In this document: piece after piece, positions 18,919 through 31,102 of the stretch
Position numbering within the stretch: position 1 is the first letter of the stretch
Layout of the letters: every line of letters begins with the position of its first letter
NCBI GenBank assembly: GCA_963981525.1
Contig: CAXCDZ010000003.1
Location: 1 to 33,542, forward strand
Source of the DNA: an uncultured bacterium
GTDB lineage: Bacteria; Patescibacteriota; Microgenomatia; UBA1400; UBA12108
Length of the DNA stretch: 33,542 nucleotides
Direction: 5' to 3'
The notes under the pieces: generated by a model
Databases searched by the model: none
What the model was told of the DNA's origin: nothing
Seen by the model: only the letters and a program-made list of their open reading frames with translations
Translations under genes and position numbers: made by a program

Positions 18919-19449
18919 TTAGTAATCAAGCCCCTTCACTGCCTTCTCTCCTTTATCAAACGGATGCTTAATTTTCTTACACTCCGTCACAAGATCAGCA
19001 CCTGCGAGGATGGTCCTCGCAGGATCAGTTCCCATTCTTCCTGTCATCACTATGTGCGTCTCTCCTCTCTCCTCTACTAGCTTCACAATCTCCTCTTCAC
19101 TTAACAACTCATCTCCCATCGTATTAATAATCTCATCTAACACCAACACATCCACCTCACCCATCAACTCTCTAGATTTTTTGAATGCTGCCTGTGCAGC
19201 CTGCTTGTGCTCCTCGGGTGTCCCGTGGTCTGTTGGCAACTGATAAAACCCACTCCCTAATGGATAGATCTTAATATTCTCAAATTTCTCCCCCAGCTTA
19301 TGCTCCGCAACCGGCCATCTCTCCTCCTTGTACCACTGCACTATCGCGACCTTCATCCCCGTTAATGCCGCCCGCACCGCAACACCCAACGCGGCTGAGG
19401 TCTTCCCCTTTCCCTCACCCGTAAATATATAAAATAATCCCTTACTCAT
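18919..19449 (-). CDS. cobO: cob(I)yrinic acid a,c-diamide adenosyltransferase (CobO/BtuR/CobA)
   Basis: 'YIFTGEGKGKTSAALG', 'LVLDEI', 'VMTGR', 'ADLVTE', 'KHPFDKGEKAVKGLDY'. Confidence 0.93.
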   Translation of the reverse strand: MSKGLFYIFTGEGKGKTSAALGVAVRAALTGMKVAIVQWYKEERWPVAEHKLGEKFENIKIYPLGSGFYQLPTDHGTPEEHKQAAQAAFKKSRELMGEVDVLVLDEIINTMGDELLSEEEIVKLVEERGETHIVMTGRMGTDPARTILAGADLVTECKKIKHPFDKGEKAVKGLDY

Positions 19450-20093
19450 TCTTCGAGTCCTATCTTCTCTCCTATTATCTCGATCTCCACCTGCTTAGGA
19501 TCTACCTCTATCACCACTCCCATCTCCTCAAGTAATTGGGCAGTTAATACTACCGGCATCCCAATAATCGCCGAGAATACGCCAGTTTGCTCCATCACCC
19601 ACTCTTTTGCTCCTCCTTGAATCGCATAACACCCCGCAAACCCTTTCCATTTCCCGTCCGTAATATACTGCGTGAGCTCTTGCTCACTAACATCCCGGAA
19701 TCTCACCTCTCCCACTGCACTCCCCACCGCTCGCTCACCTGTCAATGAGTCTACGACTGCCACTCCTGTCACGACCTCATGACTCTTCCCAATCAACTTC
19801 AAGAGGATCTCTCTAGCTTCATCCTCGCTATGTGCCTTCCCTAATATCTCGCCATTCATACCTGCCTGCGCAGGCAGGCTCACCACCGTATCCCCCCCGA
19901 TCACTAGCGCGTCCTCCTCACTACTTATTGCCAAAGCTTTCTGCAACGCCAGCTCCTCAACTAACTCTCGCGGATTCTCGCACGCAATACTCGACTCATC
20001 AAACCCAGATTCCTGGATCGCGTACTCCACACCGAGTCTGGTCAGGATCTCACTTCGCCTTGGTGACTTACTCGCCAGAATTATATTTTGCAT
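19446..20093 (-). CDS. maf: Maf-family nucleoside triphosphate pyrophosphatase
   Basis: 'IILASKSPRRSEIL', 'LALQKA', 'IGGDTVV', 'ILGK', 'AGCYAIQG'. Confidence 0.94.
   Translation of the reverse strand: MQNIILASKSPRRSEILTRLGVEYAIQESGFDESSIACENPRELVEELALQKALAISSEEDALVIGGDTVVSLPAQAGMNGEILGKAHSEDEAREILLKLIGKSHEVVTGVAVVDSLTGERAVGSAVGEVRFRDVSEQELTQYITDGKWKGFAGCYAIQGGAKEWVMEQTGVFSAIIGMPVVLTAQLLEEMGVVIEVDPKQVEIEIIGEKIGLEE
19861..19878. repeat. perfect 18-bp palindrome inside maf
   Basis: CCTGCCTGCGCAGGCAGG equals its own reverse complement; a 15/18 copy lies at 1775-1792 in comM. Confidence 0.85.
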
Positions 20094-20102
20094 TTTCTTA
20101 TT

Positions 20103-29788: not shown

Positions 29789-30970
29789 TTATTCTCCGCC
29801 CTTAGACACGTTTTCGTTGCAATTTGGACATTTACATTTTGTAGTTGGCGACTCAAATGATTTGTTGCAATTTCCACATTTTAATTTAAATGTTTTTTTA
29901 TCTTGACTCATTACCCTATCTGCTCGCATATCTAAATGATTTCCTTTTTGATCAAAACTCAACACTGAACTTCCATTCCCATGTCCTCCCCACATCGCTC
30001 TGTACATATCCATCTGCTGTAATTCCTCTTGTCGTATTATCCATTTCTCTATTTCATGCCCGCTAATCCCTTCCATTCCCATAATCCAACTCAACTCATG
30101 TGTTAATTCATTCTCATTAGCTATTTGTAAATATATTAATCCATTTTGATAAATTTCTTTTTGATCTTTATCAACAAATTCGCCCATCAAGTCTTTAAGT
30201 AGCAAGTCTCTCACCATCTTGGAAAATTTATCCCAAAAAAATTCTCCTTTCTGATCCAAAAATTTACTTCTCAACTGCAATATTGCCTGATTCACAACTC
30301 TCCCATCAAATTGGTCAGGATTATCCAAATCAACCACTCTTCTTTCTATCTCATCCCATCCTGCAAAACCCAGCTCCCCCACCACACCATCCAACTTTCT
30401 TTTTTTCACTACTATTGGCGTCTCCAAAACAGATTTTTTATCCAAATTAACCGGTAATCCCACAGCTTGCAAATGCTCTTCTTCTTCAATCTCCGGAGTG
30501 TACAAAGAATATGCCAAGTATTTATCTCCTTCTCCTCGTACGATTACAAAAGTAGCCGACAGCGGCGGCTCATCGCCAAATCGATACTCTTCTCTTGGGG
30601 GACTCACTATCACTATCCCATCTCCAATTTCCAATTCGCTTGTCATCTGACTCGCCATCTTCCACACCACTAACTCTGACTCAAATCTTCTAACTAGCTG
30701 CTCATTTCCTCCATATGACTGTCTACTTGTTTCCAACATTTTCGAATATTTTGTCAATTTACCCTCATCAAGATAACAAAAATCACCACCCACAAAAACC
30801 ATTTCTCTTTTGGTTATTCCTCCGACCACCTCTCTTCTCTCATTCTCAACAATCTGAGCCAACACATTCAATTCAGTCACCAAAGATTCAATATGCACTA
30901 CATGCTCAGCATCACTACCTTCGCTCATCAACACCGACGCCGGAATCCTACTTAGTTCAATCCTCGCCAC
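29789..30970 (-). CDS. hypothetical protein with C-terminal Zn ribbon
   Basis: About 393 aa; C-terminal 'CGNC-x10-CPNC'-type cluster. GTG 30970 follows AAGGAG (30976-30981) by 5 nt; the ORF track starts at 30985. Confidence 0.8.
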   Translation of the reverse strand: MARIELSRIPASVLMSEGSDAEHVVHIESLVTELNVLAQIVENERREVVGGITKREMVFVGGDFCYLDEGKLTKYSKMLETSRQSYGGNEQLVRRFESELVVWKMASQMTSELEIGDGIVIVSPPREEYRFGDEPPLSATFVIVRGEGDKYLAYSLYTPEIEEEEHLQAVGLPVNLDKKSVLETPIVVKKRKLDGVVGELGFAGWDEIERRVVDLDNPDQFDGRVVNQAILQLRSKFLDQKGEFFWDKFSKMVRDLLLKDLMGEFVDKDQKEIYQNGLIYLQIANENELTHELSWIMGMEGISGHEIEKWIIRQEELQQMDMYRAMWGGHGNGSSVLSFDQKGNHLDMRADRVMSQDKKTFKLKCGNCNKSFESPTTKCKCPNCNENVSKGGE

Positions 30971-31014
30971 ATTCACTCCTTCCACCCCTAGCTCGGGGGC
31001 AATAGGTCAAGTCA

Positions 31015-31102
31015 ATGTGGTGAGTTCCCGGCTTGTCTCGCCATTAGGCGGGCTTTACGGTTGCGGCACAGCAGAGGATTCTCACCTCTTTCCTACCCAC
31101 AT
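31015..31102 (-). promoter_or_regulatory. cobalamin riboswitch (short, AdoCbl-variant/class II-like)
   Basis: Minus strand ATGTGG-GTAGGAAA-GAGG-TGAGAAT-CCTC-TGCTGTGCCGCAACCGTAA...AAGCCGGGAACTCA-CCACAT: closing stem, GGAA, T-loop hairpin, GCAACYGTAA and B12-box-like AAGCCGG. Confidence 0.82.

Follow-up and report, generated by a model that had tools for sequence, protein, structure and literature searches.

A conserved array of three divergent class II ribonucleotide reductase genes, with a fourth copy elsewhere, in a Microgenomates (Woesebacteria-like) genome

De novo synthesis of DNA precursors depends entirely on ribonucleotide reductase (RNR), and most genomes in a 401-genome sample of the phylum studied here carry one copy of nrdJ, the gene for the class II enzyme. 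The question raised by the present locus is why a genome of 902 kb should hold four. The window analysed is a whole stretch of 33,542 nt, contig C3 of genome G000, a metagenome bin of 103 contigs rated 97% complete. It contains three nrdJ genes (J1, J2 and J3) within one run of genes on the minus strand; a fourth copy (J4) lies on contig C9. The answer that we favour, with reasonable though by no means full confidence, is that these are old, complete and non-equivalent NrdJ isozymes kept by purifying selection, and that J1 to J3 belong to a vertically inherited, probably NrdR-repressed operon of Microgenomates (Woesebacteria-like) bacteria, a label that follows the source names attached to orthologues (Microgenomates, Woesebacteria and Collierbacteria).

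Matches to Rfam, Pfam and NCBIfam models bear out the gene list of an earlier, sequence-only reading of the window (riboswitch, nrdR, three RNRs, MazG-like, Maf and CobO). Its count of three nrdJ copies stands for the operon but not for the genome, where J4 has to be added. The short spacers and ATGA overlaps described there are seen as a 4-nt ATGA overlap at nrdR/J1 and another at maf/cobO. In the direction of transcription the run comprises the riboswitch, the gene for a 398-aa protein, nrdR, J1, J2, a MazG-like gene, J3, maf and cobO. Its features, and J4, are as follows (scores in bits where a model is named; in intein sites a slash marks the point of insertion).

30974-31120, minus strand: adenosylcobalamin (AdoCbl, B12) riboswitch aptamer (RF01482 and RF00174)
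29789-30985, minus strand, alternative start at 30970: 398-aa protein outside Pfam and NCBIfam families
29703-29716 and 29735-29748, unstranded: two NrdR-box-like palindromes, CACTA-N4-TAGTG (pattern match)
29668-29695, minus strand: sigma-70-like promoter TTGTTA-16-AATAAT, just 5' of nrdR (consensus match)
29198-29650, minus strand: nrdR (TIGR00244, 184.6 against a cut-off of 124.65; PF22811 and PF03477)
26127-29201, minus strand: nrdJ copy 1 (J1), 1024 aa (TIGR02504, 588.5 against 399.95)
27282-28370, minus strand: J1 intein, 363 aa, residues 278-640, site NP/CGE
23027-26062, minus strand: nrdJ copy 2 (J2), 1011 aa (TIGR02504, 614.7 against 399.95)
24038-25222, minus strand: J2 intein, 395 aa, residues 281-675 (PF14890, 64.3 against 35.8; PF14528, 62.9)
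22580-23005, minus strand: MazG-like all-alpha NTP pyrophosphohydrolase, 141 aa (PF12643, 44.2 against 27)
20103-22433, minus strand: nrdJ copy 3 (J3), 776 aa (TIGR02504, 702.5 against 399.95)
19446-20093, minus strand: maf, nucleotide pyrophosphatase family (PF02545, 163.9; TIGR00172, 144.5 against 117.15)
18919-19449, minus strand: cobO, ATP:corrinoid adenosyltransferase of the CobA/CobO/BtuR family (PF02572, 158.8 against 25.7)
Contig C9 of G000, 123-2333, plus strand: J4, the fourth nrdJ (Pfam)

All four copies are assigned to class II by PF02867, with 398-458 bits; J1, J2 and J3 also exceed the cut-off of the NrdJ equivalog TIGR02504, J4 having been scored against Pfam only. The thiyl-radical Cys, in a finger loop of the form N-x-C-G-E, and the two redox Cys are present in all four copies and in every clade of the tree described below, the J4 loop being NLCGE throughout its clade. 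The redox Cys, NPCGE and APTG motifs and the C-terminal Cys cluster previously noticed are indeed legible in the translations of J1, J2 and J3. However, a contiguous NPCGE is found in J3 alone, since J1 and J2 are interrupted at NP/CGE by LAGLIDADG inteins, which leave exteins of 661 and 616 aa, respectively. Each of the four copies is closed by the pattern CPxC...GCxxCxxC...C, a putative zinc site; a Cys-rich, zinc-finger C-terminal tail is known in class II RNR from the excerpted text of Loderer et al. 2017 (PMC5704485). J3, which carries no intein in the window, has an N-terminal ATP cone (residues 8-102) that J1 and J2 lack. The proposal that only the third copy has a cone is thus correct within the window, but J4 has one too, and cones are confined to J3 and J4. 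The exteins of the three window copies are 36-44% identical in pairwise comparisons.

Conservation of the array was examined in 61 genomes, G000 among them, which were searched with Pfam RNR models. RNR matches were found in 23 of the 23 other genomes of the same family, with at least five HMM pieces in 21 of them; the two with fewer pieces are 79% and 88% complete. Twenty loci were then chosen for neighbouring RNR matches, 13 from same-family genomes and seven from six other families. All 20 contain a tandem of three RNR ORFs, in the order nrdR-J1-J2-J3-(maf)-cobO; nrdR precedes the tandem in 19, and maf and cobO follow it in 17 and 18, respectively. The MazG-like gene occupies the same position in four (L008, L009, L010 and L022), and a 129-aa ORF and a TraG-like gene are also neighbours in most. 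In most same-family relatives, J1, J2 and J3 overlap or are separated by 10 nt or less, subject to the uncertainty of start codons. A J4 orthologue was found in 18/18 loci of a second batch, picked for a lone RNR match. Altogether, the array order recurs across seven families of the order, and the finding that had been named as fatal to the sequence-only reading, relatives with one nrdJ, is replaced in the 20 chosen loci by three genes in tandem.

With a bin of 103 contigs, at about 5x depth in the runs examined, one might ask whether the array is a chimeric assembly that joins the single nrdJ genes of several strains; in contigs from two runs, a 26-nt cross-link does connect J3 to J2 (window positions 20477/23586). 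The stretch from 21500 to 30500 is present in 20 public runs from 17 studies, all of them marine or seawater metagenomes. Logan contigs from runs X9-X12, drawn from four studies that carry no flag as possible source, agree with the window at every position and span every junction: cobO-maf-J3 (18764-20409), J3-mazG-J2 (20973-25450), J2-J1 (25434-26989), J1-nrdR (26648-29608) and nrdR-398-aa gene-riboswitch (29057-31003). Identical bridging contigs from four other studies, together with a gene order repeated in 20 other genomes, have already refuted the chimera, to which we assign virtually no probability. The 26-nt joint, which falls at homologous places in J3 and J2, is probably a paralog cross-link in the assembly graph and not a deletion variant.

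The age of the copies was assessed in a FastTree phylogeny of 84 RNR ORFs from which intein columns had been removed. The sequences form clades according to tandem position: second genes in 21/21 cases, third genes in 21/21, J4 in 19/19 and first genes in 17/21, with support of 100. The remaining first genes (from L009, L010, L023 and L024) constitute a separate clade, J1b. Since tandem position corresponds to tree clade across seven families, the duplications must predate the split of these families. Selection was measured by the Nei-Gojobori method in 11 genome pairs (43 comparisons). Values of dN range from 0.05 to 0.27 while dS exceeds 1.4 or is undefined; omega, computable in ten of the 43 comparisons, lies between 0.02 and 0.05. 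J1 does not evolve faster than the other copies, including in pairs where both genomes carry the J1 intein; in the G017-G013 pair, for instance, dN is 0.096 for J1, 0.087 for J2, 0.148 for J3 and 0.192 for J4. Relaxed constraint on the extra copies, the other outcome that was to have undone the earlier proposal, is seen in none of them, with the proviso that saturated dS only bounds omega. No catalytic position has been lost from the clade consensus sequences, and the C-terminal Cys cluster is intact in them. The agreement of position with clade, the retention of catalytic residues and the low dN relative to saturated dS lead us to conclude that these are old, selected paralogs and not decaying duplicates.

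How might the copies differ? In the main text of Schell et al. (2021, J Biol Chem, PMC8365446), more than one nrdJ is reported in 1108 of 24,059 GTDB representatives, an apical loop PNSP is assigned to diphosphate reducers and P-[ASG]-G-R to triphosphate reducers, and differing phosphate specificity is the proposed reason for retaining multiple nrdJ genes. In the present genome the apical loop reads PNGR in J1, CAGK in J2, PAGR in J3 and PGGR in J4. These loops largely follow the clades: PNGR in 16/17 J1 sequences, CAGK in 17/21 J2 sequences (the others having VAGK or CSGK), PAGR in 15/21 for J3 and PGGR in 18/19 for J4, as against PNSP in 3/4 for J1b. While 69% of the multi-nrdJ cases covered by that main text mix PNSP with PxGR, this genome has Gly-Arg/Lys loops only, and the P-N-G-R and C-A-G-K variants are outside the motifs listed there. 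A division of labour between nucleoside diphosphates and triphosphates is consequently not predicted here by the published motif, and was rejected as the reason for retention in this genome. Such a split is predicted in the four J1b sister loci: these represent three sister families, and three of the four genomes (those with PNSP) would mix phosphate types, unlike the window genome. The J1 clade is itself sister, with support of 100 in two quick trees, to PNSP-type NrdJ sequences labelled Chloroflexi, Anaerolineae or Caldilineaceae, which suggests that J1 changed Ser-Pro to Gly-Arg secondarily. Specificity loop 2 is of equal length in all copies and carries clade-specific residues.

Comparison with the NrdJ of Thermotoga maritima (PDB 1xje) places these differences in context. 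J3 is the closest copy, its residues 196-702 aligning with an E value of 3.6e-121, and it has in common with the T. maritima enzyme the redox Cys, the NPCGE finger loop and the length of loop 2. The apical loop, in contrast, is PNSP (diphosphate type) in T. maritima, where PNGR, CAGK, PAGR and PGGR are found here; the present copies further depart from it by the ATP cone of J3 and J4 and by the inteins of J1 and J2. T. maritima has a single nrdJ gene, against four paralogs in G000.

Under the interpretation that we favour, J1, J2 and J3 in the operon and J4 elsewhere would be retained because they are not equivalent. The isozymes differ, in ways conserved within each clade, in the apical phosphate loop, in loop 2 and in the ATP cone of overall-activity control, and each would cover, in parallel with the others, a different part of substrate, effector or regulatory space. 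CobO would adenosylate scavenged corrinoid for all NrdJ copies, while Maf and the MazG-like enzyme would trim the nucleotide pool. We infer the enzymatic differences, co-transcription, control by NrdR and the role of the 398-aa gene from sequence and context.

A different way to account for three adjacent genes is that the co-operonic paralogs form obligate mixed dimers or complexes, hence one composite enzyme. The arrangement itself speaks for it, with the three genes together in all 20 loci as ORFs that mostly overlap or nearly abut. A system to compare is that of Pseudomonas aeruginosa, where, according to the excerpted text of PMC4520616, the products of adjacent nrdJ genes, NrdJa and NrdJb, act together. 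The P. aeruginosa pair is, however, one enzyme in two incomplete halves, whereas each gene here encodes a complete enzyme. Further evidence came from other lineages, surveyed in 401 genomes sampled evenly across the phylum with the J2 N-extein as query (the tally includes the unpublished G212). A match was found in 267 of the 401 genomes and at least three matches in 14. The association of nrdR, several nrdJ and cobO is found again in ten such loci of other classes, which extends the linkage beyond the order. In these arrays most units have no Cys-rich tail beyond the barrel, and no more than one unit per array is tailed, suggesting that the tail is supplied in trans. Their finger loops fit N-[PLQIV]-CGE (NQCGE, NICGE, NLCGE and NVCGE were all seen) and their apical loops include VTRS, SGMT and SGTP. 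Loci L050-L053, L058 and L059 have three or four tandem nrdJ, mostly tail-less units.

Fusions of two complete NrdJ units, about 1370-1500 aa long, occur as well: several genomes of the survey encode them in proteins of 1370-1490 aa (loci L054-L057), and database proteins of this type bear the source labels Kerfeldbacteria and Patescibacteria group (P0130, P0145, P0189, P0191, P0213, P0221, P0238 and P0244). In these proteins the TSCPD domain and the Cys-rich tail occur in the second unit (B) only. Unit A is sister to J2 (support 99) and unit B to J2 plus A (support 96), so that, outside its own clade, J2 is related most closely to halves of double-NrdJ fusions of 1400-1500 aa, a further point for joint action. 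Yet unit B is not orthologous to J1, J3 or J4, and J4 is unlinked to the array. In the order to which G000 belongs, no copy lacks a tail or any part of the catalytic set, so that none needs a partner. Hetero-oligomers are plausible in the tail-less and fused lineages; in the order of the window every copy is self-sufficient on paper, and there we regard an obligate hetero-oligomer as unlikely, though as deserving some weight.

Insertion of inteins at the catalytic site brings up another explanation, namely that the copies are redundant back-ups against inteins or homing endonucleases that hit this site. Inteins do come and go at two hot spots: NP/CGE is occupied in J1 at six loci and in J2 at four, and GGG/TGF in J3 at four. 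At the latter site, which is empty in the window, J3 of L017, L018, L019 and L024 contains a canonical intein of about 480 aa (C...VHN/T). In addition, J1 of G019 carries an in-frame TAA: the J1 orthologue of L020 (G019:C10, 2325-5417) is split by this single codon into 141 and 870 aa, which may reflect a pseudogene or a sequencing error. But genomes without inteins, such as G021 and G012, keep all four copies; G021, intein-free in each of J1 to J4, in particular disagrees with the suggestion that some copies back up intein-gated ones. Moreover, 36-44% identity with clade-specific conserved motifs is unlike interchangeable spares, and all copies are under equal constraint. We therefore consider the back-up explanation improbable, and return to non-equivalent isozymes as the preferred reading.

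The two inteins of the window, inserted at the same site, are only 22-27% identical. The J2 intein is canonical (C...VVHN/C, with a block B T..H and LAGLIDADG motifs), and J2 inteins in general end in VVHN. The J1 intein has Cys1, the block B T..H, the block F Asp, two LAGLIDADG motifs and Cys at +1; it ends in SDTWITNGYVSRG, followed by that Cys, and lacks a terminal Asn as well as the block F and block G His. Arg and Asp stand at the block G and F His positions, respectively, in the J1 intein family. Inserts of 363 aa, 66-88% identical and all ending in SDTWITNGYVSRG, occupy J1 in the window and in L015, L016, L017, L020 and L021. An AF2 model that includes the junctions (pLDDT 88.6) retrieved by Foldseek 7qsu (E 4.5e-18) and then PI-SceI and PI-PfuI, which are endonuclease-bearing inteins; phmmer against PDB sequences gave a spurious match only. 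Measured against class 1 LAGLIDADG inteins (PI-SceI, TliVMA, PI-PfuI), the J2 intein is canonical; the J1 intein is predicted to share their HINT-plus-LAGLIDADG fold, but it and its family differ from them in the terminal Gly and in these two substitutions for His. In the excerpted text of PMC4031507 the C-terminal residues named as cyclising are Asn, Gln, Asp and Glu, with His F:13 and G:6 as helpers. The J1 intein departs from this defining trait, with a terminal Gly in 6/6 loci.

A database search for the J1 intein family (query residues 277-639, one off the true limits) produced 297 matches. Among the best 120 of these (P0005-P0124), Gly precedes CGEQ in 107 of the 107 that could be parsed (104 SRG, 2 SVG, 1 QRG), and the host is of PNSP type in 95. 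Source labels of the hosts of Gly-ended inteins are Chloroflexi, Anaerolineae, Caldilineaceae and Patescibacteria. Cys1, the block B T..H, the block F Asp and the +1 nucleophile are invariant in an alignment of 30 sequences of the family. An early view, that an intein without Asn leaves J1 inactive, was rejected: the end of the intein does not vary, and the J1 exteins show the same constraint as the other copies. The Gly end, the missing helper His and the purifying selection on host exteins together would imply removal of the insert without cyclisation of a last-residue side chain. Tentatively, and with somewhat less than even confidence, we propose that the Gly-ended inteins at the thiyl-radical Cys, in J1 and in more than 100 other NrdJ, splice by a non-cyclising chemistry and constitute a new mechanistic class. 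One possible route would be an N-to-S acyl shift at Gly-Cys(+1), followed by ligation through the freed amine. No description of a Gly-ended intein was found in open-access text, that of Novikova et al. 2016 included, whose supplement may list such inteins.

The J1 intein also bears on whether the genes are recent mobile-element or phage cargo, their redundancy being a transient state after horizontal transfer. Across phyla the intein is more alike (59-66%) than the host protein (46-55%), J1 groups with Chloroflexi-type NrdJ, and the window contains an integrase-like gene and, beside cobO, a TraG/VirD4-like gene. Nevertheless, an intein can be transferred without its host gene, synteny that includes the TraG-like gene is kept across families, the paralog trees follow the same family groupings, and the neighbours of the array are housekeeping genes (dnaG, rpoD, tRNAs). 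Vertical inheritance of the isozymes is accordingly preferred, and recent cargo strikes us as very improbable. The surrounding features are these.

16104-18817, minus strand: downstream context of the array, comprising the 129-aa ORF without known family and a 775-aa TraG/VirD4-like NTPase (the NTPase itself at 16104-18431, minus strand, 62-85% identical in relatives)
15308-15384, minus strand: tRNA-Ile(TAT), which reads AUA in a manner uncommon among bacteria
14239-15096, plus strand: tyrosine-recombinase (XerC/D-like), integrase-like gene
4681-4887, plus strand, and 6460-6673, minus strand: two matches to group I introns (56.4 and 84.3 bits, respectively), flanking a tRNA-Met (4980-5052) and a 343-aa ORF without Pfam family

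Regulation of the locus appears to involve two transcription units. It had been assumed that the B12 riboswitch belongs to the nrdJ unit. A pair of NrdR-box-like palindromes and a promoter-like site stand between the riboswitch and nrdR, however, and from this we deduce one unit formed by the riboswitch and the 398-aa gene and another comprising nrdR-J1-J2-mazG-J3-maf-cobO. The nrdR product has the zinc ribbon and ATP cone architecture expected of this repressor of RNR genes, and NrdR probably acts as the repressor of the operon. The two palindromes lie 32 bp apart, centre to centre. They can also pair with each other in a hairpin (-24.7 kcal/mol, z -1.91) that is followed by a T-run; an initial view of this hairpin (29702-29748) as a plain terminator was replaced by that of an NrdR-like box pair that also self-pairs. 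In the excerpted text of PMC12051234, the usual NrdR site is a pair of 16-bp boxes with a spacer of 15-16 bp. The window resembles the NrdR regulon of Rodionov and Gelfand (2005, as cited in PMC12051234) in that nrdR heads an RNR operon and two box-like palindromes are separated by a 16-bp spacer; it differs in boxes that are GC-rich in the centre, mutually complementary and hairpin-forming. The promoter match 5' of nrdR agrees with the consensus at 9/12 positions, consensus being its sole basis, as the number of such matches in the region is not above that in shuffles. A further promoter-like match precedes J3.

The riboswitch aptamer, for which ligand binding is predicted, matches RF01482, a member of clan CL00101, with 52.2 bits (gathering threshold 50), and RF00174 with 36.8 bits (31.5). 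Its 3' end overlaps the ribosome-binding stretch GGAAGGAG and the GTG start or starts of the 398-aa ORF, the only gene directly 3' of it. A covariance-model search found no second B12 riboswitch in the genome. The riboswitch unit would hence be separate from the nrdJ operon, the switch probably controlling the 398-aa gene only. Syntenic homologues of this gene precede nrdR in relatives; they encode fast-evolving proteins of 360-490 aa, 13-20% identical to the window copy, and a B12 riboswitch lies 5' of the gene in 4/8 of the relatives' loci searched. The 398-aa protein combines a PAS-like alpha/beta region with a helical region and, at the C-terminus, a CxxC...CxCxxC ribbon (AF2 model, mean pLDDT 64.7). 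Pfam and NCBIfam scans gave no family, Foldseek no match at E of 0.001 or below, and the ESM Atlas a best score of 0.77, which is at chance level; in a wide VIA-align search the best Z was 6.9 for the helical part and 4.8 for the PAS-like part, both within the stated noise. A profile search collected 284 cluster representatives, a small family, and none of ten scanned profile matches reached a Pfam cut-off. With low confidence, the protein may be a corrinoid-handling or scavenging factor.

Several points weigh against the interpretation as a whole. If the published motif rule (main text of PMC8365446) applies, all four copies prefer triphosphates, which removes the sole documented rationale for keeping several nrdJ. 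Loop 2 has the same length, a Gln and basic residues throughout, and its differences could be neutral drift. Saturation of dS leaves omega bounded only and blurs any differences in selection between copies. As regards NrdR, the box search gave two matches at one mismatch or fewer where 0.73 were expected, and 13 of 100 shuffles also reach two, so that the count alone is weak. A box occurs within 130 nt 5' of nrdR in 11 of 21 loci, but the 32-bp pair in only three of the 21 (at most one mismatch), and a box 5' of J4 in one of 20. The centres of the window boxes are GC-rich (AGGG and CCCT), unlike the consensus in the excerpted text of PMC12051234. Lastly, the RF01482 score of the riboswitch is just 2 bits above its gathering threshold.

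The features that bear on the predicted dependence of these enzymes on AdoCbl are the linkage to cobO and the B12 riboswitch. The cobO product contains the P-loop GEGKGKTS and scores below the cut-off of the NCBIfam equivalog TIGR00708 (127.5 against 167.75); it would be a divergent family member, whose function we infer from Pfam and context. Genes for class I NrdB (PF00268) and class III NrdD (PF13597) were not found in this 97% complete genome, control genomes having matched, nor were a B12-binding domain protein or a BtuC-type (FecCD) permease. Given these absences and the single B12 riboswitch, NrdJ is the only B12 user found, and dNTP synthesis in this organism appears to proceed solely through AdoCbl-dependent RNR. 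Next to J4 lies a fusion gene (G000:C9, 2371-3615, plus strand) whose product joins an MtrA-like domain (PF04208, from a family of corrinoid-binding subunits) to a thymidylate-synthase domain (PF00303); the two genes are often kept together in relatives.

Genomes with several nrdJ are already in print, and in this respect the impression that a triple arrangement had never been described has to be qualified; the conserved array itself, like the double-NrdJ fusions, was not found described in the open-access text searched, including the Burnim et al. preprint. The main text of PMC8365446 mentions neither a conserved three-gene operon with a fourth copy, nor a case in Patescibacteria, nor fusions, although its supplement may list them. 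In the literature searched, no account was found of the fixed array, the unusual loop motifs, the tail-less and fused forms or the Gly-ended intein.

A 0.9-Mb genome has devoted about 10 kb to four NrdJ paralogs since before its order diversified, which implies that one class II enzyme is insufficient for these organisms. The locus is a natural system in which to ask whether a single RNR is limited by the phosphate level of its substrate, by effector logic or by activity control. J1, with a Gly-Arg loop and a position sister to a diphosphate-type clade, offers a way to see whether phosphate specificity has changed on more than one occasion. Splicing that does without Asn could come to light in the Gly-ended intein, and the 398-aa gene is a candidate corrinoid handler in a genome whose search found no BtuC-type (FecCD) B12 transporter.

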